A DNA stretch of 64,000 bases from Devosia sp. (GTDB lineage Bacteria; Pseudomonadota; Alphaproteobacteria; Rhizobiales; Devosiaceae). The position numbers and the translations under genes are program-made. Position 1 is the stretch's first letter. Each line of letters starts with the position of its first letter. A model generated the notes under the pieces. That model worked only from the letters and a program-made list of their open reading frames with translations, did no database searches and was not told the origin of the DNA. The stretch lies in contig JAYRZA010000013.1 in assembly GCA_041916695.1 (NCBI GenBank), positions 34,990 to 98,989 of the forward strand, written 5' to 3'. Below are positions 1-29,327 of the stretch, in pieces.

Positions 1-1270
1 AACTCGGTCCAGGCGCTCACCAGCGCGACCAGATCGCCACCCTCGAAATTGGTAACGCCGTTGTCACCGATGATGACGTTGTTGCCATCTCCGGCGGTCA
101 GCCTGTCGCTGCCCGAGCCGCCGAGCAGGATGTGATCGCCATCGACGATGACGATCTCGTCGTCGCCATAGTCGGCCTCGGCCATTGTCTGGACGATCTG
201 CCGCACGCCATCGCTGGTGTAGAGCGCAAGGCCGTTGTCACCGAGGATAACGCTGGTGCCGGTGCCGGCGGTGATGCTGTCGCCACCATAGCCGCCGAAG
301 ACGATGTTCTTCCCGGCTCCGGCGCGAATGGTGTCCCTGGCTCCCTTGTTGGTTGCCGTGGATTCCACCCGGATGACGATGCCGGCGGCGAAGAAGGCCG
401 CGCCGTTGTCGCCCAGCAGCGTGTCAGCCTCGTCACCGGACGTGATGTCGTCCTCGCCGGAGCCGCCGATGACGATATTGCGGCCGGCGCTGGTGGTGAT
501 GGTGTCCTTGCCGCCATTGTCGACAAAGGTGCTGATGATCACCTCGACGCGCGCCTCGTCATCGAACATGACCAGGCCGTTGTCGCCGAGCACGACATCG
601 CCGGCATTGCCCGGGTCGACACCGGGATCCCCGGCGACGACGTCGAGAATGTCGTCGTCGCTGCCGCCGACGACGATGTTGCGCAGGTTGCCCAGGACCG
701 GCGCGCCGATGAAGGTGGTGATGTGGTCCTTGCCACCAAAGCCCGGATCGATGCTCTCGATCTGGGTTGGCTTGCCGTCCTCGAAGTCGGCAACGCCGTT
801 GTCGCCGAACAGGATGTCCTGACCACCGAGGCCCTTGATGGTGTCTGCGCCGGTACCGCCGAAGACGATATTGCGGCCTTCCTTGGCGTCGATCTCGTCA
901 TCGCCGCCCACCGAGGTATTGGTGGTCTTGACCTGGACGACCTCGCGGAAGGTCATCATGTCGAGGACGCCTTCCAGCATATCCTCCTGGCTGATGATGC
1001 CGTGGTCGCCGATGATGACGTCGATGTTGGCGCCGCCGGTGATGGTGTCGGCGCCCGCTGTGTCGGCGTCGTCGTCGATGATCACCGTACGCAGCAGGTA
1101 GTCGACGTCGAAGGCGCTGTCGCCGATGATCCAGTTGGTGCCGACACCGCCGGTGATGAGATCGTCACCGGTGCCGCCGGCCATGAAGCTGGTCGACTGT
1201 CCGCCGAGAAGGTCATCGACGCCGGCACCGCCGTCGACGACGACGATGCCCTTCGCTCCGGACGCATCCA
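1..1270 (-). repeat. RTX/beta-roll-like Gly-Asp nonapeptide repeats (GGxGxDxUx) inside the giant ORF; the block continues past the window edge
   Basis: Motifs read directly: LLGGSGSDRLT (97-129), FGGYGGDSIT (270-297), VIGGSGEDDIT (440-472), FGGTGADTIK (833-865), MAGGTGDDLIT (1152-1184), VDGGAGVDDLLGG (~1200-1245). Each is followed about 10-15 aa later by a GDNG/GDxG turn. Confidence 0.8.
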
Positions 1271-22200: not shown

Positions 22201-24620
22201 GGTCCATCGACGACGGTTCCCTCGGGCGGGGGTGCGTCGCCCGCCGGGGGAATGCTGTTGGCATAGGCGGTCAGGCGAACGGCGTTCGCGGCGGCGACGC
22301 TGACGGTGCCGTCGCTCTCGACGGCGGTCAGCGAAAGCGCTGCCCCGATAGTACGGTTGACGTCGTTGATGGCCGTTGCCCGGGCAATCTGGTAGCCGGG
22401 CGAATTGGCATTAGGCTCGCCATCGTGGTTGGGCGAGAATGGCAGCGCATAGGCGGTGAAGGCAGACGAATCCGCCGAGCTCAGGGATAGCCCGCCAACT
22501 CCGACGTCGATGGTGCTGCGATCGATGCCAGCGAGGGTGCTCCCGGTCGCGGTGTTCTTCGCCTCGAGGCTTACGGCGCGATAGGCGGTATTGGTTTCGG
22601 CTTCGACCTCCAGCCCGCGCGCGATTACCGTGACGCCGCGGATTTGCGCGGTGGCTGCCTCGCTGAGCGTGTTGCCGGCCGAGCCGACGCTTGCTGACAG
22701 AATCTCGTTGCTGACCCGGCCATAGTTCTGGGCCTGCAGGCGCACGAAACCGTCGGCATCGATTACAGTGGGATGCGCTGCATTGACGGCGCCCGCATTC
22801 GCCGCACCGACCAGGACCTCGGTCGTCCGGTTCACCGACAGGTTCGAATCGAGAGCGGAGAACACCGCGACATTCGCCAGCCCGCCGATCAGGGGCTGGC
22901 TCTCGTCGGTCACGAGGCGGACTTCGACGCGGCTTCTATCCTCTGCCGCGAGCAGCAGGGTACCGCTGGTTCCGTTCTGGACGAGATCGGCGTCGTCGTC
23001 GACTGTCACCTTGGTGGTGTTGGTCGCAACGATGTTGGACTGCATCCGCGAGGCGTCGAAGCTGACGATATTCTTGGCGGCCGCAAACAGGTCCTCAGAA
23101 CTGATGCTGCCTTTGGAGAGCCCGTCGTAGAGCGTCTGCAGGTCGGGAAGGCCGGACGTGTTCACGTCGGCGTCGAAAAGACCCAGGATGGCTGGCAGAG
23201 GCACCTTGTTGAGGGCGATATCGACATCGGCGGCGGTGGTGGCCCTGACGGTGATGTCCGTGCCGGTGATCTTCCCAGTTGACGCGATGGAGACCGTCGA
23301 CGACGTCGTCGGGGAAACGCTGAGCGTGCGCAAGGCCGCATTGGCGTCGCCGCGCATGGTCATCCGGTTGACGGCAAGCGTGTTGAGATTGACCGAGTCG
23401 GCGGTCAGCGAACCCGCGAGCGCGATGCTCGCCGTGGCGGTCGGACTGACGTTGACGCTGCTGGCAGAACCGGAAATCGGGGTATCGGTGAATGCCAGAC
23501 CCTTGAGGTGAATGGAACCGGCCGAAATCACACCGGAGGTACCGATCTCGACGAGCTCTGCACTAAGGCCGAGCGAGCCGTTCAGGCTCAGCGAGGTATT
23601 CGCAACGACCTTGTCGCCGCCGTCCACCATCAGCGAGAACGATGCATGCGATGGCAGTGACGCGATCGTCGTGATGCCGCTGGCCGGACCGAGATAGAGC
23701 CAGACCGGGCTATTTGCGACAGTGTCGTAGTTGGTGGCGTTGATCACGACCCGGAGGTTGCCACCGGAGGCCTGAATGGTGACATCCTGGCCCGCGGCGG
23801 CAGCCGAGCGGTTGACGACCTGGACGCCGGCGCCGACGCTGAACGGCTCCATGTTCTCGAAGGCATAGTGCAGACCGCTGGACAGCGTCACCTGGCCGGA
23901 TCCCCCTGCTCCGAGCGAGGCGGTCGACGCGCTGAGACCGCCGGCATAGGCGACCGTGTCAGTGCCCCCGAGCCCTCCGTCGATGACGCCGGATACCCCA
24001 CCGCTCAGGCCAATGGTGAATGTGTCGGTGTTGCCGTGGCCACCGCGGAGGTTCTCCACATCGGAGAACGTGACGGTGCCGACAGTGCCCGCGTTCAGTC
24101 CACTGACTGTCCAGCTTGCGGCAGAAGAGGAATCGAAGACCACCCGGTCGGAACCGTCGCCACCGTCGAACGATATCGCCGGAAGGACCGTGGCGCCGAA
24201 CGAATCGACGTCGATGGTCAGAGTGTCATTGCCGGCATTGCCGGCAATGGCGATCGAGGTGATGGTGTCGGCGTCGCCGAAAGCCAGCACGCGGCCGCCG
24301 TCTGTCTGATCGATGATCTGGACACGCTTGACGGTTACCGTCTCGGTCTCGGTGCGAACAATGTCGTCGAACAGGCGAACCAGCAACTGGTGCTCGGCAT
24401 CCGGAAGGTCGGTGCTCAGAGAAACGTTGAGGTCGGCGTTGAGCAGCAGGCGTGGCTCGAGGGGATCGAAGATCAGCCTGACCCTGTCCTCGAGCTCGCG
24501 ACGAACCCGCGATCCCCCAGACAGCCTGGAAAGCTGACGACGCAGCGTCGACACGAGCTTCTCGCGGCGCGGTGAGGCGGGGGGGCCGAAAATGCCCTCG
24601 GACTTGAACGGATATGCCAC
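1..24620 (-). CDS. Giant repetitive adhesin/S-layer-like protein with RTX-type (GGxGxD) C-terminal region. Partial: the start is in the window and the 3' end lies beyond the left edge (at least 8,206 codons visible)
   Basis: My translation of the minus strand reads without a stop from GTG at 24620 (GGGGG run 6-10 nt upstream, ...tagGGGGGtgaaaGTG) down to the codon at 3-5. None of the >=60-aa minus-strand ORFs in the track between 1 and 24690 lies in this frame (all end at coordinates = 0 or 1 mod 3; this frame is 2 mod 3), as expected if the frame has no stop. The N-terminus reads VAYPFKSEGIFGPPASPRREKLVSTLRRQLSRLSGGSRVRRELEDRVRLIFDPLEPRLLLNADL. The left end reads ...LLGGSGSDRLTAGDGNNVIIGDNGVTNFEGGDLVALVSAWTE. 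The track omits it because no in-window stop exists. Confidence 0.85.
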   Translation of the reverse strand, partial: MAYPFKSEGIFGPPASPRREKLVSTLRRQLSRLSGGSRVRRELEDRVRLIFDPLEPRLLLNADLNVSLSTDLPDAEHQLLVRLFDDIVRTETETVTVKRVQIIDQTDGGRVLAFGDADTITSIAIAGNAGNDTLTIDVDSFGATVLPAISFDGGDGSDRVVFDSSSAASWTVSGLNAGTVGTVTFSDVENLRGGHGNTDTFTIGLSGGVSGVIDGGLGGTDTVAYAGGLSASTASLGAGGSGQVTLSSGLHYAFENMEPFSVGAGVQVVNRSAAAAGQDVTIQASGGNLRVVINATNYDTVANSPVWLYLGPASGITTIASLPSHASFSLMVDGGDKVVANTSLSLNGSLGLSAELVEIGTSGVISAGSIHLKGLAFTDTPISGSASSVNVSPTATASIALAGSLTADSVNLNTLAVNRMTMRGDANAALRTLSVSPTTSSTVSIASTGKITGTDITVRATTAADVDIALNKVPLPAILGLFDADVNTSGLPDLQTLYDGLSKGSISSEDLFAAAKNIVSFDASRMQSNIVATNTTKVTVDDDADLVQNGTSGTLLLAAEDRSRVEVRLVTDESQPLIGGLANVAVFSALDSNLSVNRTTEVLVGAANAGAVNAAHPTVIDADGFVRLQAQNYGRVSNEILSASVGSAGNTLSEAATAQIRGVTVIARGLEVEAETNTAYRAVSLEAKNTATGSTLAGIDRSTIDVGVGGLSLSSADSSAFTAYALPFSPNHDGEPNANSPGYQIARATAINDVNRTIGAALSLTAVESDGTVSVAAANAVRLTAYANSIPPAGDAPPPEGTVVDGPTVAAGVLVANVLNGGTSATVSGGTVDTLGPSSDLIVTATDDSTLDATIFLNIDGRGVGSPIGLGSATAVSGLAALNIAGFTVTNIAAATFDALLGTDFWTDEHPSDIVASVDDTTLIIGGAVLVSATARGIANTTVSNTSRVDSTGTLGISAKAVSAVLASNQMSRSARATIDGGASNAAKSMLVGGAVDVSASDEQTIQSNVKIVSSAVAASDGGLHAAAREFEQMEADVRLTQGAPTGLTFGAKVGLDYDLWTAGKSETITVDTGDIVLLARGGETGKLYRYAGTGPRTINFDREAASTVFADEDEWEEVLGTPGSVYTYMGPTVSGTVDLAAQDFGDVAFWKAELDYTALLEGTNLRSSSGATMGMSLVFNDIRGGAEAFVRDADLTADSVVVTAESTAYIGALSDVYNEAQGGGPFNQDALLKKAFTGKFMSFLTFVTSGESTGARSAIIATNLIQGQTSASIVDSTVEADTDVTLSATNDARILAESSTTAAATGGGAAAFQIANNTIGWERGNLLFNTLETLLGDIVHNISEPAGQGDVALRHENPFTVEASITDSDIVAGGAVDLSALNTSIITSTIDNEASGSITALFDGLTGVYAAVISGNKISSSAVAAISGGTVDADSVTVDAQNDAEIEAVTGMGVSSELDNTNGVNIADKIIGTVINDYDYTSSSGSALLQFGDKVRIPELEDEDNPLVVYQWMGPDGSLPVDAVDLGTADYSDLGLWKRLTTESLIPPMIIKSGLLAIGMTAKQVMGNATATAGIFDRNTVNSVVTAEISGGAEVTAAGIVEVRAEQTGAIRASDTSTIDSWDANGIISVTNNVQGGAAAFIDDSTVSAGSLDVSAESTSSIEAVALSQAGGSGSVNVVVLAFNAVGYKPLNLLFDAVETLIGTDQVTDAVLEADVGVNTSAYVKDSSVVVGGDILVQAVNAVSIDATNGAEAAMEWENDFAVASEFAAEGKSAAIILASNKVNGSAEAFIDNLGQPSRTIDAGASVEVTASNDSWLSADISVVSTTVPENTLDAVQQLLGNAADRLGLTGYDYTTQSGVRTIKEGDVVRVGLSTASVELDMAGQHLPDEVVDIVRGDLIKSADGKYYRYNGPSSPPDDPDEMPKYQLTAFSEIDLAQLDSLGEAVWVEISASDLANGKAGVLYRYIGNADLGPVNLSGLDYTNENLWQQLQTADFEDLFFPSFGNLFTTNARSIGLAITFNDVRGDATASLANVTVEADGDVLVSADDTAAISSRLASTVDASGGSGINGSGDVVSFNGQIATNVVLGKAAALIDNADITSGSDVEVSAVNDARVDARLYSSGVSGATAYGITLAFNSVGWDAQNLLFNTVDTIIGANYIADDGFGGNVGADASARVTDSTIAAAGALSVTADNIAQVNSTVSNTANTVTAALYGATGASYGILISGNKVSGKAIATIEDNTSAPLNDIVADGVFVAADDASMIYSNVKLVAESSVTNDAGLAVIQETVNDLLDADYDTVPDQNGLKTVNLVFGDRVRLDNGYAAASVDASRGLDPLNVAIVEGDIIQLPPGEDEDSGPKYLYVGTGDYVIADVETEDFDNASLWQLIGGAAGKVYTYMGTAASGLQTDLLTTNFDDTNFWKADPVSSITEQGLNLSTSPSKAVGALVVLNDVRGGADAGITNSEVDGGAGGVSVSASEEAGISATADSAVTANGGSSIDSDAFSPPPPPDGEATEDVLIAINGTIATNLVQSSAIAEIELSRIETTGSVAVTADNTSLVAATTLSTAYTSGGDTVGVTMAFNSVGWQPQNVLFNGIDAILGDDLLADEAFGGRNEARTEAKVTSSTIIADGDLMVSSTNSAAIEAEVSNEATSQSTSISGTDGKALGFLIASNKVASGAYATIDNSAAGTAVIEAGNVSVTADDEGTIVSSGNILALAEIKNDYGISAAANVIKSLLDNYQFTTKSGSQLVRSGDLVFIGDDYAVEEAQGKLYRYSGPDATIDLGGLITQDAAWSVYDVDTIVDFINDNIPSLAGGSATGVGAMAILNLVEGNSIARVSSAELTLTGNLEIAATETGTIEADLVARVEVTGGTTSKSDSIAVNAVIATNNVVGTTSALLEDSAVLSVVDVDVSATNDSSITATLDADTISRQTSVGIVLAFNSVGVQGQNFLFNTADALVGTDLVSTLSGAPPLSASASIEASDITASGALTVEAHSTQLINAEISNYVQTIRAGFDGGNAISVGLVVALNRVNADASATIADSGSIHVTGAITVDADNSADITSVVIQPVISLALNLGSGQSKGISVSLVVSRNVVDADIEASIDNVDDISAASVSISADQSATIDSTAAAAAISAAVTGGGAVGVSGGGVVSFNTIRGNVTATIADSVVAAAAGEVLVHAGNSAQIASTVLAAAISFQGSFSSSATGVAIGAALAFNYIGYAGSILDKGAADPLTTSASIRNATVTGKKVKVESKSEASIDGFVAAAAVAVGASVGNATQVSVGGAAVQNRIAADTTAIIDGGDTPGHSTLTIGDDGLEVGAESDNEVSAKAYAASVAASFSGGNSVDIAVGLGLALNDIKGTTEAKLEDSTVLKATNSTGGTSLTATDDSTISAEAAAVAFSAAVSIGSSVAVSAGGALAFNDIGVDVKSQVIDSTVTSGGAVTVSATETSSISAVIVAASFAAAIGPNNGVAVGFGVSVAENIIGASGGGQSVVLAKISGSDITAAGEVKVRAFSEETISATVVAASIAIGIGGSVGVALGGAGAGTHNAIRIATSAIIDGSTSDVSAGSIRVEAEDRSAITVLTGAAAVAVSIGSVGVSVALGIAIALNEIDSDVTAKVDDASSLNTTAGNVALNAKRNATITAEAYAASLAVGIGLSAGVAVSGAGAAARNSITGDVIASIVDTGVTSFGDTTLKAESTSTISATIGAVAVAVGGGAAGVGVGIGIAVALNRVGDWSGDSDDYQALVDDEDPFDSVAAATGTAKVSATISGSDVTAGGDVKVEAVSAQTITATVVAAAGAVAAGVAGVAVAGAGVYVENLIGVSTLAQVSGVSGDLSTLRATDVKITASDTSIITALAGAAALTAGFGGAGVGVSVGIAVAKNTIANTVAASAAYADIAVTDLVVRPTSGVIPPAATPGTIEIRATSAATIDATAAAAAIAISAGVAGVSVAGGGAVALNMIIGDSNLDDTVGTTTAQASNSILDSGANITVAATSNATIEAEILAVAGSAAFGGVGVAASIGVGIARNYIGYDLSGTYKPLLTEASLRNTKVDSYGNLAISANSTETVTARVIAGSVAVAGGYVGVAVAGAGASTMNRAGVVTRAFIDDDGTQIRAADIEIAANDTMSLTGYAGAASIAGAAGAFGGTLTIAVTEAENAARSSVSAYVDNATNVMVTGDVVKTPDQYIYTTQVQPNPVYHYGTGKISITSSQATTLAATSELASVSVNLSIGPTLAGGGAKSLNSVLTSSDAYIEDSELAVNGDVVVDAVNTITATATNRALTVAAGLFSMAVAGLDAQAAIDARANARIDRTTLGARDVDIHSRVTPSASGSTQAATGGAIGVGVSKANTVVTVSSTAGATGSLLTVEDLAIRAEESRNGDTAYASAEGIVGALIGTDATVTNATHNGTVAALLGLGTVVVAGRTVTVAARGDSKQRALSDSAAYGLVAVGATIANASSLSTTTANIASDVTVWAGDLEVSASGNDDNYGSVSPGAGGLVGIAAGEVDTTANVTSEAAIGSGASILLLRNTAAGLLGRLDLTSEQTTKANTSIQTSAYGAISGSGTESDNVVNASSTARIGDSAEIIAADVSAASVNNFIKDNIGTNMDGTAGGAITVAGIDSVTDLNLTTLTVVENGASVMLNGTSADNGGIDLSAFNNIVFHETVAFKGGGVGSGIGASSTLDAKDVVARVQIGTSPATTDANVLLRSTGEIALRANSAADVRVAVSVDNYGGVTVSVADAVVEVNPTNDIIVGRHATLYALRDVLMLAGMDEDFNYDEYVIRTYADTLAGSLIPIDSLKVDSLLFITNHITLMQTAAVETGGNVMLLADHEALAEIVSQGKTRNWATGASDGLNKLLGGAETYYSHGDSQAESIVHVDGTIRTGLNRFVNIVIEDIIADPPAQPGGAPTNVQIVGTIPTTVNVTLAVATLQSNYRDELEKAYIQRDRYENDATLQAFWNSEIERLARELEFLGLAELQTEPSTGDLIVIPLEKTVLTVVVDPIYAAAGYIYVHADVLEGTGTLDAPGNVTVTIDNQTKAFLEVRGITIPANNGGVFFNGFQNEVSKADTSAEANAAVVAANADNVEAKNDYVDDFGAIEHLYVAGFTNLTITPTTGTAVAARIDIKNTWIRQDVEDPWPGIVVSGEIDAITADVLIDARLGSGDITINAEISSASLEVLTKGFVVIDLPPGSIYESGGSPFSDWRSISTSGGVGDVTSAQAVTDLLDDAPKPGLSANRISINAEYVNLNGALTSGRKDYVLDIGAATINEINTIESKPHALKRYLLTTASTDSFNAFWDAKEKRIVIEEFRVPGGSITITGKLLNTGNGSIEALGGYVHVTVVNRSDWDVLIERIDVTDRGAGTIILNDTAKGTNGGYVQTWYQTNPDGTVTVRTSSWELVTTPSTEPAAVGNRPFSKDYVLVAGSMITNPPTFNGAAAFNEVFSYQPQEGWRYGYTVGQITQTITTTVHTTSKWLGIDAFAADPGPITKGPIVEVIGQPTLIDNSIYYYRDASDVANSTDPAHTYLSWDYALATPRTYTRDLPTVSHWYGTKDYRKEVKVVEKTQENGTHTIEADRPVAIKFTGYDEARVEIDSRGAGDVLVKGGILNDTGLTKISSNSEIKSTNATSVVQGVRIELAARDDIGSDGVIGAATTWGTLQDILPLRIDLVDFYPADFRGAGSIAPTFAVVSASSSNGGVYLREISGDMQIGTVAAARGNVVLVAQSGILAAETSPGVFATGLVTGNSIDLAADRSTSLPNGALGGIGQGAARPLLINSGVLPEHRVSLLAVRDISVRETAGDMRLVFATTLGDVYLKVDAGSLVDADFTVQKDLRVREELLAGLWSDLQLTDGSGAQQKIADTLTGYENWKRQEYQTYWTLKNQFDGTSVHLTAQEVAYYTAFYGGGQAAADAIAALEASRTAQYLDLAADYAGYGEVQRLNIDVAYAQYWAYRTAQPVVMSQFEIEALTQLLTADALAANALLATPLRNELDLFVADYLAANLDAAVIAQETLLGHPLSDAEMAEVEAEVVADALAANSQAATPLVNDLDLLVAAYVAANIDARNADDLELMFGRLNESAIHYDRTIPANAVNSSPTQMKYLFAIGSVASELTSSIKVWTEQELLFAFGSGVMKPVTSTETVIEASNINASSIELITSANIGKVDRELIIDLGNGQTVPNLTDDERVAIAAAERQDIVYASVLRQGIVATFTNVGNHGVITTTGGWAGFGDGDIIYIAGATTNKTEEGRYFTVASVSGDTVHLIDGQTFATEFNRVVDVANVELDPTAVGVTITKIIVSRRDDVDVVTAGLIDATAGGSIYLGTTGGMQLGTIAAGSGEAVRLKAKGALVNGLAGNGINITGSDIVLEAGDAGIGENRAITLSMFAGGSLVARATDDIRLTAPSSDLLVDSIYSRSGDVFLDATLGSILDALGTDSEKIRANFISLSAGGSIGSATDLLEINVTGTYSNDPTDPSTLGTIVANAGGDVALRETEGDMYVRRVASTAGDVYLEAILGSLLDAEYVGVVNPGDPVPPQAGADIIGRSISLYAKTAIGRSNNELEVNSSASGDGKVRAFTDIESIFLVETVGDLNLDQVGTPTVDGANDFRPQAFLVALSGSILNARALNEADQRNIVSRMTYLSASQNVGTSSRRVTTEVGNLEATAQAGNTYILNLGGLIVGDVRASSSGVSAGGKVSVMASSPILIKESSIAHAGDLEFWAEDDNELSGLGDDDLPDDITVLSGVTLEATGQIRLLAGDDLLIEHGAVIDSDVSILMAIDYQATAVLDPDALGGNAELLGTLHAPVITLNGGGQADTVLIDVVALQGNTFVNGGGGDDVVTVDKLPTMNTYQGVIVAGFAKDGQGRELRDELTIDGQDGSDHTIINIEGATSDYVINVVDTGSSLDALDVLTVEGTALADTFLMRSGMIANLREDGAGGYLDAFERINYTSAVNGRVIVEGLGGDDSFYFDDNSAIMTVDGGQGDDFFQVGQLFATSRDAATEGVFAIESVADRFETIPVSFGFLSLGISLPAVLYGGSGEDRFVVYSNHADLRLEGEDDNDEFVIRAFALGDGTKVKLNGGGGDDLIQYNVNAPVDIDGGAGFDKIVVLGTEFADVFVVTKDGVYGAGLTVRMSNAEAMEVDGLEGDDTFYVLSTAADVVTTIIGGLGSDTFNIAGDVTKTVVADNDGSQGAISHTVQSGDLRYNGMFVRGLDLTATGATTGASLDTGDGLSVQEDDPLSIDSYKLTLPDAPAVGASAFVTVSAAQASTLTRSRPGGPGKTVLVSLDGVNFAAAVTVEFTQANYAAGQTIFVKAESDSGEEGKAVVAVSHSVVTTDPAYQGFDIGNVLVTVGDDDKPAVVITESAGNTQVFENGASDSYEVSLSRAPAPGETVTVTLQPGTGLTLSTTELKFGAVAGAGVFKWDDAQTVQVSSVNDGIANRYVSPILHDVSSTGGLYSAVDSELVQVEVIDAATPGVEIIESDGFTSVSQAGQTDTYQMVLTALPTADVRVNIVVDGKAKPVVGGSVLQDASGFYVVFTSANWSTPVTVTLEYDATGSNSTQNQRVFSQQPHDLVSIQGPLFVEGGVGPSDRSITRAVVLPGELNPAVIRDVDTDAEDDLDRLNVFSDTVQADTTGLLTETRITGLNMPGGQLTANLGNNVFKDFDRGITYTNFGVVEVLLGEGNDTFEIDGTLATTLTVVHGGGNRALSGPEIDAGGIVGDRLTVLDSLGPVVLFGDTSANGLRYNSVPLTPDGSAYRFDIYGNDVLDASGAKGIVVVDGGAGVDDLLGGQSTSFMAGGTGDDLITGGVGTNWIIGDSAFDVDYLLRTVIIDDDADTAGADTITGGANIDVIIGDHGIISQEDMLEGVLDMMTFREVVQVKTTNTSVGGDDEIDAKEGRNIVFGGTGADTIKGLGGQDILFGDNGVADFEDGKPTQIESIDPGFGGKDHITTFIGAPVLGNLRNIVVGGSDDDILDVVAGDPGVDPGNAGDVVLGDNGLVMFDDEARVEVIISTFVDNGGKDTITTSAGRNIVIGGSGEDDITSGDEADTLLGDNGAAFFAAGIVIRVESTATNKGARDTIRAGAGKNIVFGGYGGDSITAGTGTSVILGDNGLALYTSDGVRQIVQTMAEADYGDDEIVIVDGDHILLGGSGSDRLTAGDGNNVIIGDNGVTNFEGGDLVALVSAWTE
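1900..3050 (-). other. Three beta-sandwich (Calx-beta/cadherin-like) domain-like segments of the giant ORF
   Basis: Segments such as PAVVITESAGNTQVFENGASDSYEVSLSRAPAPGETVTVTLQPG, PGVEIIESDGFTSVSQAGQTDTYQMVLTALPTADVRVNIVVDG and WSTPVTVTLEYDA. This alternating-strand pattern is typical of Ig-like adhesin domains. The family assignment is by eye only. Confidence 0.45.
3050..4090 (-). repeat. Dispersed GGxGxD(D/T)F calcium-binding-like motifs (spacing about 25-45 aa) inside the giant ORF
   Basis: VNGGGGDDVVTV (4050-4086), IDGQDGSDHTII, EGLGGDDSFYF, VDGGQGDDFFQV, LYGGSGEDRFVV, LNGGGGDDLIQY, IDGGAGFDKIVV, GLEGDDTFYV, IIGGLGSDTFNI (3050-3086). A similar pair sits near the N-terminus (FDGGDGSDRVVF 24135-24170; IDGGLGGTDTVAY 23957-23990). 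Confidence 0.7.
6180..7030 (-). other. Non-repetitive, apparently alpha-helical island within the giant ORF, containing a tandem ~175-nt duplication
   Basis: The sequence is rich in A/L/E/Q/Y/W (QKIADTLTGYENWKRQEYQTYWTLKNQ...YAQYWAYRTAQ...). Two copies are readable: ADALAANALLATPLRNELDLFVADYLAANLDAAV (6557-6656) and ADALAANSQAATPLVNDLDLLVAAYVAANIDARN (6381-6482). Confidence 0.6.
11000..15650 (-). repeat. About two dozen tandem, diverged ~180-200-nt (60-66 aa) Gly/Ala/Val/Ser/Thr-rich coding repeats (beta-helix-like) in the giant ORF
   Basis: A recurrent signature of hydrophobic G/A/V run + N + x + I/V recurs at about 190-nt spacing. Examples: GIGIAVALNRVGD (~13420), GAGAAARNSITGDV (~13600), ALGIAIALNEIDSDV (~13780), GAGAGTHNAIRIATSA (~13960), GFGVSVAENIIG (~14170), GGALAFNDIGVDV (~14340), GLGLALNDIKG (~14540), GGAAVQNRIAADT (~14740), IGAALAFNYIGY (~14960), GGVVSFNTIRGNV (~15150), SLVVSRNVVDADI (~15330), GLVVALNRVNADA (~15520). 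The same pattern runs back to ~11000. Confidence 0.7.
15650..22100 (-). repeat. Six diverged super-modules of 1.08-1.36 kb (about 360-450 aa) in the giant ORF
   Basis: A conserved anchor LAFNSVGW(x)xQNxLFNxxD recurs on the plus strand as ttgaacag...acggagttgaaSgcc at 15751-15795, 16831-16875, 18169-18213, 19531-19575 and 20632-20690, with a degenerate copy at ~21927. Each module also carries one or two G-K-x-Y-R/T-Y-x-G motifs (16282-16304, 17415-17438, 18713-18736, 18882-18905, 21229-21251, 21343-21366), followed by D-F/Y-x-D/N-xx-W. Confidence 0.7.
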
Positions 24621-24734
24621 TTTCACCCCCTACCGACGCTCGCAGCGGAGCGCCCGGTCTCTCAACAGAAAGTCGTCGAACGACTGGCACGGCCCGCCGG
24701 GCTTGCCCGGCGACAGTTGCGCATTGGCGTTGGC

Positions 24735-25496
24735 CTAAGCCGCAGTCTCCTGCCCGGTCACCGGCGCAGCCGCAGCCGCCGTGCCCATTCTCTCGGCAGT
24801 GGCCTGCAGGTTCCGCAACGACTGCAGGTGTAGAAAGATCAGTTCGAGGTCATCGGCGGCGGACAGTGCCGCGAGTTGGTCGGCGGTCAGAGCCTTCAGC
24901 CTGTCCCGACTGACCGCCTCGAAGCCCGAAAGTGTCAGGACCTGTCCGGACCGCAGGGTGAACTGCGCCTGCATCGGCTCGAGCAACGCCAGTTCGCGCA
25001 GTCGTTCGGTCAGCGCGCGGGTTCGGTGGAACTGCACCTGGTAGGCCTGCAGGAAACTCAGGACCCCCTTCAGGTACTGCGTCTGCTCGCCCTCTGCATC
25101 GAAGAGCCGCTCGCCGCGATCTCTCTTGTTCACGCCTTCGAAGGCCTCGTCGACACACAGAGTGAAGTTCTGCCCGTCGGGGCTCGACGAGAACACGAAC
25201 GGATAGCGTCGCAGGAAGGCGGGAATGTACCTGCCCTGCCAGCGGCCCTCGGCGTCGACCAGCAGGTTCTCGCCATCGCGGATTCCGAGCAGAACCGCCG
25301 GGACGACTTCGCCCCCCTGCCCGGCAAAAACGATGGTGAGGTCACTGGCCACCTGCGCGAACTCGGCAGCCATGAGTGGCACAGAGTTGATCCCTGCGGC
25401 GAAGCGAAAGTCGGCGCCCGCCTTCACGGACACCTTTCCGTGCTTCTGCCGTGTGACCGGCACGGCCTTGTCGTAGATCAGAAGTTGCTTGGTCAT
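24735..25496 (-). CDS. SapC family protein
   Basis: MTKQLLIYDKAVPVTRQKHGKVSV...MAAEFAQVASDLTIVFAG...VLLGIRDGENLLVD..GRWQGRYIPAFLRRYPFVF matches the SapC-family signature as I remember it (Ef..a...yPivF....llGl..geNl.v...g.W....yiPa.vRrYPF). I prefer the ATG at 25496 (GGGGAG 4 nt upstream) over the track's GTG at 25517. Confidence 0.75.
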   Translation of the reverse strand: MTKQLLIYDKAVPVTRQKHGKVSVKAGADFRFAAGINSVPLMAAEFAQVASDLTIVFAGQGGEVVPAVLLGIRDGENLLVDAEGRWQGRYIPAFLRRYPFVFSSSPDGQNFTLCVDEAFEGVNKRDRGERLFDAEGEQTQYLKGVLSFLQAYQVQFHRTRALTERLRELALLEPMQAQFTLRSGQVLTLSGFEAVSRDRLKALTADQLAALSAADDLELIFLHLQSLRNLQATAERMGTAAAAAPVTGQETAA

Positions 25497-25714
25497 TGTC
25501 TCCCCTGGGGCGTCCACGAGGCCTGAGCCTCCCCCGGAAGGGACAGATTCCGTCCCCTTGCCAAGTCGTAAACGGCCCTCCGGGAATGATCAATGCGTAC
25601 TGATATACTATGCCTAAGGAAGCGAAGCCGTTCCGGGCTCGTGATAATTCCCGTGCGGGCCGGTCTTTGGCGTTGATGGCCGCCCTGTCGTCGACTGTCC
25701 CGTCGCGGTCACGA

Positions 25715-26647
25715 TTAAGTTACGGACGGGAGAGCCGAACTCGGCCGATCTCGCCCGAGCGGCCGCAAGGCATCTTTGTGATCGCCAAAGCGCTCTACAT
25801 AGGCCGAGGTGAGTCCCAGGCACTGCCTGGACCCGCAGTGCTGACGATAGGGGCACTGATAGAAGCCGTTGCGATCGAACTCGACCCAGAAATCGGTATC
25901 GATGACCAACTGGGGCTGCCCGTTCTCGAGCCGGTGCGCATCCCGGCCGAGGAGGCACTCCGGGACATTCTTGATCTCGACGGCGATACCGTGCTCGTCG
26001 GCGCGGCGACAGGCCTCGGCCAGATAGGGCACTATCTCGCGGTAGTCCGCCAGCAGGCCCTTGTCGTCGTGCTCGGTCATCGGGAAATAGTGCCAGAACT
26101 CCATCTGCGTCAGCGCCCCGATCGGCCTCAGCGCATCGACGACCGCAGGCAACAGGCGATAGCTGCGTTCCGTCACGACCGTGTTGGTGATCACCGCCGT
26201 TCCCGGAATCTCCGACACGATCTCCAGGCCGCGCATCATCTTGGAGAACGAGTTGGGGATGCAGGTGATCTCGTCGTGCGTAGCGGCGTCCGAACCGGCT
26301 ACCGAGACGAAGAACTCATCGACCCCGGCCTCGACCAGCTCCCGAGCGTAATTCGCCCGAGCCAGGTGCATGCCATGGGTCTGGATCCGGACGTGCTCGA
26401 AGCCGGCAGAACGCGCCTTCTGTGCCAATTCCGGAAGATCGCGGCGAAGCGTAATCTCGGAACCGGTGAGGATGAGACCGCTCCAGCGTCGCTCCTCCCG
26501 ATTGATCGCCAGCACACCCTCGAACTGCTGATCCGAAACCGGGGTCAGCCGATCCATCGTCCCTTCGATCATGCAGTGAACGCAGCGCAAGTTGCAGCGG
26601 AACTCCATGGTCAAGGAGACGTAGCGGCTGTGATCGTATCGTCCCAA
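25715..26647 (-). CDS. Radical SAM enzyme with Cys-rich SPASM/twitch-like C-terminus
   Basis: CxxxCxxC cluster motif (FRCNLRCVHCM) near the N-terminus, a GSE/ILTGSE SAM-binding-like motif, and a C-terminal CLLG...CPYRQHCGSRQCLGL. TTG start with a strong GAAGGAGA Shine-Dalgarno 5 nt upstream. Confidence 0.85.
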   Translation of the reverse strand: MGRYDHSRYVSLTMEFRCNLRCVHCMIEGTMDRLTPVSDQQFEGVLAINREERRWSGLILTGSEITLRRDLPELAQKARSAGFEHVRIQTHGMHLARANYARELVEAGVDEFFVSVAGSDAATHDEITCIPNSFSKMMRGLEIVSEIPGTAVITNTVVTERSYRLLPAVVDALRPIGALTQMEFWHYFPMTEHDDKGLLADYREIVPYLAEACRRADEHGIAVEIKNVPECLLGRDAHRLENGQPQLVIDTDFWVEFDRNGFYQCPYRQHCGSRQCLGLTSAYVERFGDHKDALRPLGRDRPSSALPSVT

Positions 26648-26721
26648 AGCGATCTCCTTCGCCCCGCGGAGCGCAGCAACGAACTCAGCTTAGGCCCGGC
26701 CCGGTGAAAACCAAAGCGCTG

Positions 26722-27516
26722 TCATGCGGGCCGCGGCACCGCCCCGAAGTAGATGGTCGCGAAGGGCTCGCCGTCACGCCCATGCCCCAGCGATACATGA
26801 CCGAGGAACGGATCCCCGGCTGCGGGCAGCGCAGCCGCCAGACTCGCGGCAGGGATTGCCAACCCTTGCGCCAGCCGACCCAGGGCAACCTGCTGAGCGG
26901 CCACGCGGACACTCGCGCCGTAGAGGTTGACATCAATCGAGCGCCTAGGGGTCCCCACATCAACGACTTCCATGGTGGGAAAGCCGTAGTCGGGGGCATT
27001 CGACACGGCACCCGCAAGAACGCTGTCGAGAAAATCGCGCAGAACCGGACTTAGCGTGAGGGCTTGTGCGACCTCCCTTATCGTGGACGCAGCACGAACG
27101 TCCGGCAAATCACGGTAGATCGAAAAAGTCGCCCGACGGCCGGGTACCCACTTTACCGCGAAGAACACCGTGTCGGGGGGCAGCAGCCCCGGCGGCCGCG
27201 CGCCAAGCGGAAATTCCAGGTAGATCTTGAGGGCGACATCACGATCATTGTCGGCGCCGAAGTGCACCGTCTCGGCATGGTCCACCAGGTCGACGAGTTG
27301 CCCGGCATCGTCCCGCGACAGCCCCAACTGCCGGGAAATGGAAAGCAGGCTGGCTTTCCTGTCCGGGTCGAGGCTACGCCCGACGAAGCTCAGAAGCAGT
27401 CGATCGGCCGAGACACGCCCCGGGGAGACCTTGATCGATCGCTCCTCAATGAACGGGAAGGAGAGCGTCGCGAGCACCTCCCGAAGCCCCGCCTCTCCGA
27501 GTCCTGATGGAATCAT
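26722..27516 (-). CDS. Hypothetical protein, unknown family (possibly an ABBA-barrel-like fold; weak guess)
   Basis: Co-directional ORF 74 nt upstream of the radical SAM gene, with GC-rich third codon positions. I prefer the ATG at 27516 (GGAAGGA 6 nt upstream) to the track's GTG at 27576. I recognise no motif. Repeated strand-like ends (LKIYLEF, FAVKWV, FSIY, IDVNLY, ATIYF) are reminiscent of aromatic prenyltransferase barrels. Confidence 0.6.
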   Translation of the reverse strand: MIPSGLGEAGLREVLATLSFPFIEERSIKVSPGRVSADRLLLSFVGRSLDPDRKASLLSISRQLGLSRDDAGQLVDLVDHAETVHFGADNDRDVALKIYLEFPLGARPPGLLPPDTVFFAVKWVPGRRATFSIYRDLPDVRAASTIREVAQALTLSPVLRDFLDSVLAGAVSNAPDYGFPTMEVVDVGTPRRSIDVNLYGASVRVAAQQVALGRLAQGLAIPAASLAAALPAAGDPFLGHVSLGHGRDGEPFATIYFGAVPRPA

Positions 27517-27653
27517 CGCCAGTCCTTCCGCCCGCCGATCCGCTGCCAGTCTAGCTAATACCCGAGGTCGGGCCACCGAAGCGAGCGCGAGGCAGTTGTC
27601 GAAACAGCTTGGGCCCGTTCGTCTATAGCTAGATGTTGGCGAAGGGATCGGAA

Positions 27654-28889
27654 ATGCGTTTGAACTACGGTTGGGTCATCGTCTCGGCAGGGGCAGTGAT
27701 TACCTGCGTGGCGATGGGTGCGATGTTCGCGCTGCCCGTCTATCTGCAACCTATTGCGGCGGACACCGGTTGGACCCGGGCCGGGATTTCCGGTGCGATG
27801 ACGTTGGGATTCGTCGTCATGGGCGTCGCCGGGTTCGGCTGGGGTGCGCTCAGCGACAGGATCGGCGCACGGCCGGTCGTACTGCTGGCGTCATTGCTGC
27901 TGGTTGCGGGGCTGGTACTGGCCAGCCGGGCGACGGACCTGCTCAGCTTCCAGTTCGCCTATGGCGGTCTGGTCGGCGCTTCGGGGGGCGCCTTCTTCGC
28001 GCCTATCATGGCGGCCACGGTCGGCTGGTTTGACAAGCACCGCAGCCTGGCCGTGTCGCTGGTTTCGGTCGGTGGCGGCGTCGCGCCGATGATCATCACG
28101 CCTCTTGCGAGCCTGTTGATCGAGACCTACGGGTGGCGGGCAGCCATGCTGAGCATCGCGATCGGAGCGCTGGTGGTGCTGATTCCAACAGCTCTTCTCA
28201 TTCGCCGCAGACCCTCCCCGAGCGAACCGGGACCGCTAGAGTCAGCGGGGTCAGGCGGGGTCGCGACGAGTCGCCGGCCTTCTGCCGGATCGGTGCTCAG
28301 GACCCCGCAGTTCATCGTCCTGGCCGCGACCTTCTTTCTGTGTTGCGCGGCCCACTCGGGGCCGATCTTTCACACGGTCAGCTACGCGATGATCTGCGGC
28401 GCCTCCGCCCTCGCGGCGGCCAGCATATATAGCGTCGAGGGCGTGGCGGGACTCGTCGGACGGCTGGTTTTCGGGATTGCCGCCGACCGGTTCGGGGTGA
28501 GACGCGTGCTGGTCGCCGGCCTGGCGCTGCAGGCCGCCGGCATCCTTGTCTACATCTATGTGACCGAACTCACGGGGTTCTATGCGCTCGCAGCGATCCT
28601 CGGGATGGCCTATGGGGGCGTGATGCCCCTGTATGCGGTGCTGGCCCGCGACTATTTCGGACCGACGGTGATGGGTACCGTTCTAGGAGCGGCGACCATG
28701 ACGTCCAGTATCGGCATGGCTTTCGGGCCGGTCGGCGGGGGCTGGCTCTACGACACGTTCGGGACCTACCACTGGCTCTACATCGCCTCAGCGGCGGTAG
28801 GACTGGCCGCCGCAGCGATGGCGCTCGCCTTTCCGCCCCCCTCGAGTCCGAGCGCTTCCCGTCCGGCCCCTCAGGCCCTGGCAGCTTGA
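27654..28889 (+). CDS. MFS transporter (oxalate/formate antiporter-like / monocarboxylate-type subfamily)
   Basis: About 12 hydrophobic segments. The loop motif GALSDRIGARP after TM2 is typical of MFS. ATG at 27654 with AAGGGA 5 nt upstream; the track start at 27633 lacks a Shine-Dalgarno. Confidence 0.85.
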   Translation: MRLNYGWVIVSAGAVITCVAMGAMFALPVYLQPIAADTGWTRAGISGAMTLGFVVMGVAGFGWGALSDRIGARPVVLLASLLLVAGLVLASRATDLLSFQFAYGGLVGASGGAFFAPIMAATVGWFDKHRSLAVSLVSVGGGVAPMIITPLASLLIETYGWRAAMLSIAIGALVVLIPTALLIRRRPSPSEPGPLESAGSGGVATSRRPSAGSVLRTPQFIVLAATFFLCCAAHSGPIFHTVSYAMICGASALAAASIYSVEGVAGLVGRLVFGIAADRFGVRRVLVAGLALQAAGILVYIYVTELTGFYALAAILGMAYGGVMPLYAVLARDYFGPTVMGTVLGAATMTSSIGMAFGPVGGGWLYDTFGTYHWLYIASAAVGLAAAAMALAFPPPSSPSASRPAPQALAA

Positions 28890-28912
28890 TGCACCTCCAG
28901 GCCCCCCGGCTA

Positions 28913-28950
28913 TTGACAGGAGGTTCGGGCGTGCATACTTAATTGTATGC
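28913..28950 (+). promoter_or_regulatory. Candidate sigma70 promoter (TTGACA-N17-TACTTA) plus 18-bp palindromic operator overlapping the arsR-family start codon
   Basis: TTGACA 28913-28918, a 17-nt spacer, TACTTA 28936-28941. The palindrome GCATACttaattGTATGC spans 28933-28950 and the ATG is at 28947, so the transcript would be leaderless or nearly so. Confidence 0.5.
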
Positions 28951-29285: not shown

Positions 29286-29327
29286 GGCGCATCCGACAAA
29301 GCCTTCGATGGAACAGAGGCCCCAATC

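Follow-up and report, generated by a model that had tools for sequence, protein, structure and literature searches.

The window (the whole 64-kb stretch of Devosia DNA that was analysed) holds a run of co-directional genes on the minus strand. It starts with gene X (26722..27516; ATG start, 264 aa), which is followed after a 74-nt gap (26648-26721) by a radical SAM gene (25715..26647; TTG start, 310 aa). A 218-nt intergenic region (25497..25714) leads up to the ATG at 25496 of a SapC-family gene (24735..25496; 253 aa from this ATG, or 260 aa from a GTG at 25517), and another 114 nt (24621-24734) lead up to the GTG at 24620 of a giant LEPR-XLL gene (3..24620). The statements of an initial annotation of this DNA on ORFs, gaps, the Shine-Dalgarno sequence and cysteine motifs were all confirmed at the sequence level. 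Its remark that a short precursor ORF is absent also held, as no coding small ORF was found in the 74-nt or the 218-nt gap.

The SapC assignment is clear (PF07277, 233.5 bits vs. a cut-off of 28.9), and in almost all related loci this gene lies immediately upstream of the giant gene. Between the radical SAM and sapC genes, a block of ~130 nt (about 25640..25497) is near-invariant in comparison with the related loci L001, L011 and L012. It contains an AT-rich box, CTTAGGCATAGTATATCAGTACGCATTGATCATT (25618..25585), that is found in close relatives only. Because 1-nt indels separate the relatives, the conserved part of the 218-nt gap is non-coding. Neither a sigma-70 consensus nor a terminator stands out above chance in the region, and Rfam gave no match over 24000-29000. 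The conserved block is probably the promoter and 5' UTR of sapC-giant.

The giant frame is open from 24629 to base 3 and leaves the window at its left end, so that the first ~8,206 codons (>8,200 aa) of the gene lie within the window. Its product belongs to the LEPR-XLL proteins (NF012209 LEPR-8K, 25.7 bits vs. a cut-off of 17), a group of giants that includes the largest known bacterial ORFs. The NF012209 match falls in the LEPR-XLL motif region (24420..24476, …FDPLEPRLLLNADL…). The N-terminal leader of 53 residues (24462..24620) begins MAYPFKSEGIFGPP... and continues with a basic linker ending ...RLIFDP. Across 25 distinct leaders the consensus is M-A-[F/Y]-P-F-x-S-x-G-[LI]-x-G-[RP]-P, with P4 and F5 invariant, and the distance from Met1 to LEPR is 53 aa in most of them. 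The leader is conserved, whereas the repeats of the giant proteins vary between lineages. In the window protein, NF012206 (LktA_tand_53) scores 318 bits over 16 stretches of 53-residue tandem repeats. RTX-like repeats are present too, with weak matches to RTX and HemolysinCabind. The part within the window is free of cysteine, and its leader has no Trp. From sequence, neither the giant protein nor X nor the radical SAM enzyme has a Sec signal peptide.

The two predicted enzymes

Searches of Pfam and NCBIfam gave no match for X at E<=0.1, including to PTase_Orf2, Trp_DMAT and LynF/TruF/PatF. A profile search gathered 894 cluster representatives of X homologues; every one of these ~900 is annotated as 'hypothetical'. 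The N-terminus, MIPSGLGE, is common to homologues P0002 and P0003. Members of the ABBA superfamily are expected to form a central barrel of ten antiparallel strands from five alpha-beta-beta-alpha units. The AlphaFold2 model of X (pLDDT 94.7) has this architecture, with 10 strands in the order a-bb-aa-bb-bb-aa-bb-aa-bb, and all of its top 50 Foldseek matches in the PDB are ABBA prenyltransferases, with a probability of 1.00. Cyanobactin peptide prenyltransferases head the list. Matches to LimF, PagF, KgpF, PirF, DciF and TleC/DMATS have E values of 1e-7 to 1e-5 and TM-scores of at most 0.63; NphB, EpzP, AmbP and PatF are also present. At the level of the predicted model, X is shown to have the PT-barrel fold of ABBA prenyltransferases. 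The initial annotation had guessed at an ABBA-type barrel, to be checked with AlphaFold and Foldseek, and this guess was borne out for the fold. We regard X as a prenyltransferase-like enzyme whose family is a new sequence family of the PT-barrel superfamily.

Eleven strand residues are invariant in X (E25, S27, R39, K97, Y99, E101, K122, Y134, Y199, H240 and Y256), and with K29, D195, N197, R247 and T254 they make up 16 polar residues that are invariant or nearly so. In the predicted model the conserved polar residues alternate along the strands, on a side that putatively faces the lumen. When the X profile was compared with PDB sequences, OcyF and a LynF/TruF/PatF-family protein were found at E 0.5 and 1.1, which is not significant. 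The E-x-S-x-K...R-F motif of X aligns with OcyF and LynF/TruF/PatF-family sequences, which pairs E25 and R39 with the E...R of the cyanobactin enzymes. By this alignment, the two positions would correspond to Glu51 and Arg65 of PagF. Between the window and L012, X is 66% identical vs. 91% for the radical SAM enzyme, and between the window and other Devosia the values are ~33% vs. ~73%. X diverges much faster than its neighbouring genes.

The TTG start of the radical SAM gene lies 5 nt downstream of a ribosome-binding site, GAAGGAGA, and the N-terminus, MGRYDH, is kept across 25 homologues. Membership of the radical SAM superfamily is supported by PF04055 (58.6 bits vs. a cut-off of 29.5). The motif CNLRCVHC provides C18, C22 and C25 of a CX3CX2C core that is invariant in the alignment. 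Also invariant are C231 and three cysteines of the C-terminal CPYRQHCGSRQC (C265, C271 and C276), with the spacing C-x33-C-x5-C-x4-C; these four extra cysteines could hold one auxiliary cluster. The label "SPASM-like" that the enzyme had been given did not hold. SPASM proteins are expected to show a 7-Cys signature (CX9-15GX4C ... CX2CX5CX3C ... C) for two auxiliary clusters, but only the four extra cysteines are present, their spacing is not CX2CX5CX3C, and PF13186 has no match at E<=0.1.

The best NCBIfam matches of the radical SAM enzyme are HxsC4, AhbD and MoaA, all far under the family cut-offs (HxsC4, 92 bits vs. 500; HxsC, 46 vs. 268). These scores place it outside the HxsC, HxsC4 and triceptide maturase families. 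Precursors of such maturases are expected to have repeated aromatic-X-X motifs, and the leader has a single aromatic-P-F head, not repeats. A reading of the F-x-S of this head as an Fxs/Hxs-type three-residue cyclophane was dropped, since no part of the head other than [F/Y]-P-F is universal and the HxsC scores fall far short of their cut-offs. The AlphaFold2 model (pLDDT 87; 71-89 in the C-terminal region) has BlsE, GDGT-MAS, MoaA, DesII and SkfB as its top Foldseek matches, mostly of twitch or other types. Only BlsE aligns over the full length, and the core is MoaA/BlsE/SkfB-like and generic. Twitch-type enzymes are expected to bind one auxiliary cluster through 3-4 Cys of a truncated SPASM-like C-terminal domain. 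With >1,550 homologues in 294 species genomes and 60-75% identity across three proteobacterial classes, the enzyme represents a family of its own.

Recurrence of the cluster and its leader

The X alignment offers no stretch conserved enough for seeding, and the radical SAM enzyme was used as the seed of the locus search (80 genomes). A second, independent search was seeded on the leader and covered metagenome contigs. The order methyltransferase–X–Y–radical SAM–SapC–giant LEPR-XLL recurs in 80 genomes and 30 metagenome contigs, and the enzyme-SapC-giant synteny spans Alpha-, Beta- and Gammaproteobacteria. Fifty-five genome loci have 6 kb or more of sequence on both sides. Of these, 54 contain Y, 47 contain X and 43 contain the methyltransferase, which is of the Methyltransf_2 type; the radical SAM gene is followed by SapC in 40 of them and by a giant LEPR-type ORF in about 44. 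Among the leader-seeded metagenome contigs, every head-motif locus with enough upstream sequence has radical SAM-SapC-giant, and those with at least ~4.5 kb of upstream sequence have X too. Loci of the Betaproteobacteria type show the order SapC-TolC-giant. Protein Y has no match in Pfam, NCBIfam or PDB sequences, and no relatedness between Y and X is detectable (hhalign probability 0.4% and 3%). The window has the reduced form X–radical SAM–SapC–giant, without the methyltransferase and Y, which is also seen in four further loci among the metagenome contigs.

The X-radical SAM-SapC-giant arrangement is far beyond chance. The term "orphan", which had been applied to the pair, is not tenable, as the arrangement was found again in >100 independent contigs and the window is a reduced form of a 6-12 gene cluster. 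A gene cluster coupled to an MFS transporter is expected to keep the transporter adjacent; here, only the window and the loci L001, L012 and L092 have an MFS gene next to the pair, and in the other ~100 loci its position is taken by a methyltransferase or by unrelated genes. Random placement of the pair relative to the SapC/giant and MFS genes had been named as a refuting finding: its linkage to SapC and the giant gene stands, whereas its linkage to the MFS gene was refuted. Judged by gene content and order, the pair is a trimmed core of a widespread cluster beside SapC and a giant, predicted secreted protein. The cluster is previously undescribed, and a search of the literature on LEPR-XLL, DUF3467 and SapC/giant/radical SAM/prenyltransferase found no description of the cassette.

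Frequent neighbours in related loci are a DUF3467 protein, an HlyD-like adaptor, a PqqD–M50 protease–HlyD fusion and a SecA-like ATPase. The fusion, P717 (717 aa), combines PqqD (24.8 bits vs. a cut-off of 23.4), a daptide-type HExxH/M50 protease (155 bits, where the equivalog cut-off is 300) and HlyD; in NCBI it is called 'PqqD family peptide modification chaperone'. Yoonia has the operon DUF3467-HlyD-P717-SecA-like-X-Y-radical SAM, and at its loci, which carry enzymes and exporter, neither SapC nor a giant gene lies within 10 kb. The DUF3467 protein is ~100 aa long and stands at the head of the exporter operon; neither it nor SapC has a meaningful match among PDB sequences. No RRE-protease or SecA-like gene is found in the 64-kb window, which ends inside the giant gene. 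X itself occurs in DUF3467-X-X, X-Y, SapC-X, Trp_halogenase-X, kinase-X and methyltransferase-X fusions; the SapC-X fusion was found in locus L091.

In RiPP systems, substrate residues are expected to co-vary with the tailoring enzymes. A Trp in the leader and a Trp-halogenase homologue at the locus occur together in 17 cases and are both absent in 24, while the halogenase alone is never seen and Trp alone accounts for 3 real cases (Fisher p = 2e-9, a value that overstates the support because there are only about 3 independent lineages). The pattern was replicated in the leader-seeded metagenome loci, and the position of the Trp differs between lineages. The [F/Y]-P-F head and X are likewise found together in 45 loci and both absent in 7; X without the head occurs in 6, as seen in Neptuniibacter loci and L089, and the head without X in none. 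In few independent lineages, the composition of the enzyme set predicts leader residues.

Proposed role of the pair

The initial annotation had suggested, as its alternative (b), that a modification system acts on the giant protein, and this option is best supported by the comparative evidence. Conserved synteny, domain fusions, the RRE-protease exporter of relatives and the leader-enzyme co-variation all favour it. We put the probability at roughly 0.5 that X and the radical SAM enzyme carry out a RiPP-like tailoring of the giant protein's leader in the cytoplasm, before export. X would bind a prenyl (or other allylic) diphosphate inside its barrel and alkylate a nucleophilic group of the M-A-[F/Y]-P-F head or close to it, with Tyr3, Ser7 or, once Met is removed, the free N-terminal amine as candidate acceptors. 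The radical SAM enzyme would abstract a hydrogen from a leader residue, and so introduce a crosslink, epimerise the residue or functionalise a C-H bond in some other way. Once modified, the leader may be recognised by a dedicated exporter and perhaps cleaved near LEPR-XLL, or it may serve as a lipid anchor.

Some observations do not sit easily with leader tailoring. An ABBA prenyltransferase would find only poor nucleophiles in the invariant P4 and F5, and position 3 varies between F and Y. The Neptuniibacter loci and L089 contain X although their leaders lack the head motif, and the sequence of X matches no curated prenyltransferase family significantly. RiPP clusters are expected to carry a short precursor gene beside the enzymes; here the sole candidate substrate is the leader of a >8,000-aa protein. 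They are also expected to encode a PqqD-like RRE and a leader protease, which related loci have in P717 and which were not found in the window. Since Y, the tightest partner of the radical SAM enzyme (54/55), is missing from the window, the reduced cassette may carry out a different chemistry. More tentatively, it is possible that LEPR-XLL giants (8,000-17,000 aa), the largest proteins of many Proteobacteria, are handled as RiPP precursors, with a tailored and possibly lipidated leader and a novel export route. In the fuller clusters, Y, the O-methyltransferase, the Trp halogenase and a kinase would then also tailor the leader, beside X and the radical SAM enzyme, and the export route would comprise the SecA-like ATPase, the RRE-M50 protease-HlyD fusion, the HlyD-like adaptor, DUF3467 and an outer-membrane protein.

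It is rather unlikely, but worth weighing, that X and the radical SAM enzyme (with the O-methyltransferase, halogenase, kinase and Y of relatives) make an aromatic metabolite or cofactor that carries prenyl groups or halogens. Such a product, for instance a surface-attachment ligand or a signalling molecule, would only share its regulation with SapC and the giant protein or be used by them. Small aromatics are the substrates of most characterised ABBA prenyltransferases, which, like Methyltransf_2 O-methyltransferases, flavin halogenases and kinases, are typical of such pathways. The small-molecule enzymes BlsE, DesII and MoaA are among the Foldseek neighbours of the radical SAM enzyme, a short precursor ORF is absent, and neighbourhoods of SapC and Trp halogenase were earlier predicted to yield a halogenated siderophore-like compound (PMC2938197). 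However, the conserved set lacks any gene that would build a scaffold (NRPS, PKS, amino-acid or aromatic biosynthesis), its conserved transport partners are of peptide or protein type (RRE-M50-HlyD, SecA-like) rather than exporters of small molecules, and MFS adjacency is not conserved. A small-molecule product also leaves the leader Trp/halogenase co-variation unexplained, and the DUF3467-X and SapC-X fusions link X with protein-handling partners.

Less probable again is that the enzymes act on another target, which could be the giant protein's own internal repeats, SapC, the DUF3467 protein or a short peptide that is encoded elsewhere and unannotated. As the radical SAM enzyme and Y are present at all loci whatever the type of leader head, their target must be common to all loci. 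The ~100-aa DUF3467 protein that heads the exporter operon, and the Yoonia loci with enzymes and exporter but neither SapC nor a giant gene within 10 kb, would fit such a target. Against this, DUF3467 occurs as an N-terminal domain on X-X, where recruitment is a more fitting role for it than that of a substrate. The giant protein is free of cysteine and its repeats are lineage-specific while the leader is conserved, and it is the leader that the residue co-variation implicates.

We give slightly less weight still to X being a non-catalytic PT-barrel, a leader-binding chaperone or scaffold for the radical SAM enzyme and the exporter, with all chemistry left to the former. The Foldseek list includes PatF, an inactive PT-barrel protein among the cyanobactin prenyltransferases, and the rapid change of X relative to its neighbours and the tandem X-X fusions agree with such a role. 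The 16 polar residues, on the other hand, are (near-)invariant across proteins only 25-35% identical; five basic residues, four Tyr and two Glu are the make-up expected of a diphosphate-binding, carbocation-shielding site, and the Glu and Arg of the E-x-S-x-K...R-F motif are retained. The annotation's alternative (a), an orphan two-gene pathway for a small molecule exported by the divergent MFS transporter, is highly improbable, as this divergent adjacency, its one point of support, is confined to the window and its closest relatives (L001, L012 and L092), the transporter best resembles lactate and oxalate/formate carriers at scores below cut-off, and the pair is never an orphan.

For the recognition, maturation and export of LEPR-XLL giants, the cluster offers a conserved leader, a small enzyme set and a candidate exporter. 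To our knowledge, few peptide- or protein-directed members of the PT-barrel superfamily are known. Under the leader-tailoring reading, prenylation of a protein N-terminus by X would, if true, be a new lipid-modification route for bacterial surface proteins and a new peptide-prenylation biocatalyst. The reduced Devosia cassette (X, radical SAM enzyme, SapC and leader) is a minimal system suited to reconstitution.

Comparison with known systems

The cyanobactin F-family (PagF, LimF, PirF, KgpF, DciF, LynF/TruF/PatF) has the same 10-stranded barrel as X, a similar size (260-300 aa) and the E-x-S-x-K...R-F motif on strands 1-2, and its substrates are ribosomal peptides (PMC13290415). The sequence similarity to X is not significant (E 0.5-1.1) and the TM-scores are only 0.46-0.55. 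Cyanobactin enzymes come from cyanobacterial hosts and act on a short, often macrocyclic core peptide, whereas X is proteobacterial, has no cyanobactin protease or heterocyclase genes beside it, and presumably acts on the leader of a >8,000-aa protein; its fusion partners (DUF3467, SapC, halogenase, kinase) also differ. Bacterial indole and aromatic ABBA enzymes (5-/6-DMATS, TleC, IptA, PriB, AmbP1/3, NphB, EpzP) share the fold, with the best TM-scores (0.56-0.63), and have a barrel lined by Lys, Arg and Tyr, as X putatively does. They are larger (290-360 aa), use free small aromatics, reside in secondary-metabolite clusters and belong to Pfam families that X does not match.

The radical SAM enzyme resembles the SPASM/twitch clade (BlsE, MoaA, SkfB, PqqE, SuiB) and HxsC-type enzymes in its CX3CX2C core and, over residues ~10-230, in sequence and fold, and its Cys-rich C-terminal extension could, as in these, hold an auxiliary cluster. 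It differs from them in its low best score (92 vs. 500), the absence of a SPASM Pfam match and its short length (310 aa). P717 joins a PqqD-like RRE to an HExxH protease and so resembles RiPP leader-handling exporters with an RRE and an HExxH/M50 intramembrane protease (daptide and YydH/LiaK epipeptide proteases), but it is fused to HlyD, stands beside a SecA-like ATPase and is not in the window.

The placement of SapC upstream of a giant gene is shared with the sapC-giant loci of the 'Chlorochromatium aggregatum' epibiont and with sapCDEF of Campylobacter fetus. In the epibiont (Cag_662-665), a SapC-family gene lies directly upstream of LEPRxLL giants, with a TolC-type gene nearby; SapC is viewed there as a type I secretion accessory, and radical SAM and prenyltransferase-like genes are unmentioned (bioRxiv 10.64898/2026.03.19.712371). 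That work has no account of tailoring enzymes or of the M-A-[F/Y]-P-F head. SapC and Trp-halogenase homologues also occur together in neighbourhoods with a TonB receptor (and JmjC), where SapC was predicted to be an enzyme (Iyer et al. 2010, PMC2938197). TonB-dependent receptors and dioxygenases are present at those loci, for which a small siderophore-like metabolite was the predicted product, whereas in the present loci the partners are the giant protein, X, Y, the radical SAM enzyme and a protein exporter.

The locus and its giant protein

Four co-directional genes occupy the minus strand from 3 to 27516. The first, X (26722..27516, minus strand), encodes a 264-aa protein, and the second (25715..26647, minus strand) encodes the 310-aa radical SAM enzyme, rSAM, from a TTG start with GAAGGAGA 5 nt ahead of it; both start codons are backed by conserved N-termini in homologues. 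They are followed by a SapC-family gene (24735..25496, minus strand) and by a giant gene whose frame, incomplete in the window, is open from 24620 on the minus strand to the left edge (more than 8,200 codons). The intergenic gaps are 74, 218 and 114 nt, so that the gene set and spacing of the initial annotation were confirmed on the sequence. To our knowledge, the SapC family has no known fold or activity. The nearest rSAM relatives are found in Devosia MAGs, at 94% and 91% identity, making Devosia the probable source of the window.

The gap between rSAM and sapC contains a block of ~130 nt (25497-25640, minus strand) whose conservation in the close relatives L001, L011 and L012 matches that of the flanking genes and which is absent from more distant loci. 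It includes an AT-rich box, CTTAGGCATAGTATATCAGTACGCATTGATCATT (25585-25618, minus strand), in a genome of 64% G+C. Its 1-nt indels show the block to be non-coding, and it probably serves sapC-giant as promoter, operator and 5' UTR.

Divergent to X lies an MFS gene (27633..28889), the best matches of which are lactate and oxalate/formate carriers, under cut-offs. Directly downstream of it, an ArsR-family HTH regulator is followed by an AHSA1/SRPBCC-domain protein (28947-29783). A further cluster (30226-36621), with no relation to the X-rSAM finding, encodes an ECF sigma factor, a ChrR-type anti-sigma factor (Cupin_7), a short-chain dehydrogenase, a nucleoside hydrolase, a cyclopropane-fatty-acid synthase, DUF1365 and a flavin amine oxidase, a layout that we take to recall RpoE-ChrR photo-oxidative stress regulons.

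The giant protein contains no cysteine over 8,209 residues, and A, G, V, T, S and D are abundant in it. Its N-terminus matches the LEPR-XLL domain model NF012209 at 25.7 bits (cut-off 17), the 53-residue LktA_tand_53 repeat occurs at least 16 times and, near the left edge of the window, there are weak RTX-like Gly/Asp repeats. Its leader, the 53 N-terminal residues, belongs to a conserved type starting M-A-[F/Y]-P-F-x-S-x-G-[L/I]-x-G-[R/P]-P, in which P4 and F5 are invariant among 25 distinct leaders. This head is followed by an Arg/Lys-rich linker and then by R-L-x-F-D-P-L-E-P-R-L-L-L-N-A-D, with 53 residues between Met1 and LEPR in most giant proteins. No Sec-type signal peptide was found in the leader.

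A recurrent gene cluster

To assess related loci, the rSAM gene was used as the seed and 80 genome loci were annotated, with annotation seeds taken from three first examples. In the recurring order, an O-methyltransferase comes first, optionally followed by a P-loop kinase and/or a Trp-halogenase homologue, and then come X, Y (a protein of ~290 aa), rSAM, SapC and the giant LEPR-XLL gene. A second set, often divergent or upstream, comprises DUF3467, a HlyD-like adaptor with a GAF domain, the 717-aa protein P717 and a SecA-like ATPase, with or without an OmpA-like barrel. In P717, a PqqD-like domain (over the Pfam cut-off) is joined to a HlyD domain and to an intramembrane protease of the daptide HExxH/M50 type (155 bits); the protein is named "PqqD family peptide modification chaperone" at NCBI. 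Among the 55 loci flanked by at least 6 kb on both sides, Y was present in 54, X in 47, the methyltransferase in 43, SapC in 40, the giant ORF in 38 (plus six with a LEQRFLLS variant) and P717 in 33. Metagenome contigs seeded on the leader exhibit the identical arrangement at every head-motif locus with enough upstream DNA. The pair, initially described as an orphan, is thus part of a cluster that recurs across genomes and metagenomes, and it is very nearly certain that X and rSAM belong to a conserved LEPR-XLL/SapC cluster.

Several variants of this cluster were observed. In Yoonia, DUF3467, HlyD, P717 and the SecA-like gene run into X, Y and rSAM as one gene string with unrelated genes after it; in Yoonia and Loktanella the string lies on one strand (L065, 1-10900; also L052, L060, L069 and L087). 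No SapC or giant gene occurs within 10 kb downstream at these loci; a Cys/Met PLP enzyme, a response regulator and others are found there instead. Seven Betaproteobacteria-type loci (L040, L046, L051, L072, L075, L082 and L090) are without X and read (halogenase), methyltransferase, Y, rSAM, SapC, TolC-like outer-membrane protein and giant protein, the leader of which ends in ALFEALEQRFLLS before a poly-Pro run. In the window, L001, L011, L012 and L092, the cluster is reduced to X-rSAM-SapC-giant, and both Y and the methyltransferase are missing. Four metagenome loci (L099-L102) share this layout with an X only ~35% identical, so that it is found with two very different X lineages. In one of them (L100, 1-7000), the reduced cassette adjoins a further SapC, methyltransferase and Y, which form a divergent set on the opposite strand; this suggests duplication or reshuffling of cassette parts. 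On another contig (L120, 1-7413), the genes ahead of a LEPR-like protein (854-aa ORF) without the M-A-[F/Y]-P-F head encode a TPR-sulfotransferase and a BTLCP transglutaminase-like protease. None of SapC, rSAM and X occurs in these 7413 positions, and the accessory set of this LEPR-type protein is thus a different one.

The two predicted tailoring enzymes

X matches no Pfam or NCBIfam model. A word-indexed search returned three relatives only; a profile search of 1.84 billion representatives returned 894 proteins (713 at E<=1e-10), and X therefore belongs to a sizeable unannotated family, the members of which are named "hypothetical protein" in NCBI and UniRef. An AlphaFold model from a 36-sequence alignment (pLDDT 94.7, pTM 0.91) exhibits ten strands in an alpha-beta-beta-alpha pattern. 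When it was compared with the PDB by Foldseek, the top 50 matches were all ABBA prenyltransferases, bearing out at the fold level the early guess of an ABBA-type barrel. The best E-values were for the cyanobactin peptide prenyltransferases LimF (8e-8), PagF, KgpF, PirF, PatF and DciF, and the best TM-scores for bacterial indole prenyltransferases (5-DMATS, 0.61-0.63; IptA, PriB and TleC). On this model, X very probably has a PT-barrel fold.

In X, sixteen polar residues alternating along the strands are invariant or nearly so (E25, S27, K29, R39, K97, Y99, E101, K122, Y134, D195, N197, Y199, H240, R247, T254 and Y256) in a family of only 25-35% identity. With several basic and acidic residues and four tyrosines among them, they have the composition that established knowledge of ABBA enzymes would predict for a prenyltransferase site that binds the diphosphate and shields the carbocation. 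The X profile gave four matches among PDB sequences, none significant (E-values of 0.5 and 1.1 among them); two are cyanobactin prenyltransferases (OcyF and a LynF/TruF/PatF-family enzyme), and their alignments centre on a common E-x-S-x-K...R-F motif in strands 1-2. A catalytic prenyl-type transferase is the somewhat favoured assignment, and X, which matches no curated prenyltransferase family, is a new family at the sequence level.

X diverges much faster than its neighbours: between the window and L012, identity is 66% for X and 91% for rSAM, and against other Devosia-type loci it is ~33-36% for X, ~73% for rSAM and ~67% for SapC. X is also found fused to DUF3467, Y, SapC, Trp halogenase, kinase or methyltransferase, and in many family members (P0125-P0142), which are 530-700 aa long, DUF3467 is fused to X in tandem (DUF3467-X-X). 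DUF3467, for which we know of no function or structure, may be a substrate-recruiting domain.

rSAM has a CX3CX2C motif and matches PF04055. Its NCBIfam matches span the core only and fall far under the cut-offs (HxsC4, 92 against 500; then AhbD, MoaA, Tes, PqqE and HxsC), four further cysteines (C231, C265, C271 and C276) are invariant among 26 homologues, and the AlphaFold model (pLDDT 87) is nearest to BlsE, GDGT-MAS, MoaA, DesII, SkfB and SuiB. No SPASM Pfam match was obtained. On these observations, rSAM appears to be a small member of the SPASM/twitch clade, plausibly with one auxiliary cluster. The family is highly conserved (60-75% identity), and 294 species genomes from the Alpha-, Beta- and Gammaproteobacteria were found to carry it. 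Its reaction is not deducible from homology.

The leader as candidate substrate

Leader residues co-vary with the enzyme set. A leader Trp and a Trp-halogenase homologue are both present in 17 loci and both absent from 24; none has the halogenase only, and five have Trp only, two of which are contigs cut off upstream (Fisher p = 2e-9, with loci from few independent lineages). The position of the Trp varies: in Methylobacterium, which has a halogenase-X fusion, it is residue 11, within GFWGP; in Xanthobacteraceae-type loci it lies in WFW near residue 32; and in L080 it lies in RWF. The pattern was seen again in the metagenome set, and the window has neither leader Trp nor halogenase. Similarly, the [F/Y]-P-F head and X occur together in 45 loci and are both missing from seven, all of the Betaproteobacteria type (SapC-TolC-giant); six loci, five from Neptuniibacter plus L089, have X only. 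Because few independent lineages contribute, these counts are indicative and not proof.

We propose that X would bind an allylic diphosphate in its barrel and alkylate a nucleophile that belongs to the leader head or lies close to it. rSAM would carry out a hydrogen-abstraction-initiated leader modification, and the SecA-like/RRE-M50-HlyD machinery would then use the tailored leader.

Alternatively, the enzymes could make a free small molecule: the accessory enzymes belong to types often met in small-molecule clusters, and SapC plus halogenase neighbourhoods were once predicted to yield a siderophore-like metabolite (PMC2938197). Leader-directed tailoring of the giant protein is favoured over this pathway because of the leader/enzyme co-variation, the RRE-protease exporter and the X fusions. 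The interpretation in the initial annotation is partly borne out: its second alternative, modification of the giant protein, stands, as does its ABBA guess. Export by the MFS transporter falls away with "orphan" and "SPASM-like": MFS adjacency is limited to the closest relatives of the window, and the best matches are the carriers already named. Counting against leader tailoring, the residues that are invariant in the head make poor nucleophiles, the head is missing at some loci that have X, and the exporter genes are not in the window. We put the probability that the leader of the giant protein is the substrate at about 0.5.

Both the LEPRxLL motif and the pairing of SapC with giant proteins were described previously, and SapC accompanies LEPR-XLL giants more widely, for example in the Chlorochromatium epibiont, where Cag_662 lies upstream of proteins of 36,806 aa and 20,647 aa (bioRxiv 10.64898/2026.03.19.712371). 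The Betaproteobacteria-type loci resemble that epibiont's sapC/tolC/giant layout. No description of X, Y, this rSAM family, the leader head or the co-variation was found in the literature and curated models. X may be likened in its action to cyanobactin-type peptide prenyltransferases, but by sequence it fails membership of every curated prenyltransferase family; rSAM lies inside the radical SAM superfamily but outside SPASM, HxsC and all named equivalogs. They would be tailoring enzymes of known kinds, PT-barrel and radical SAM, in a new context at the scale of a protein.
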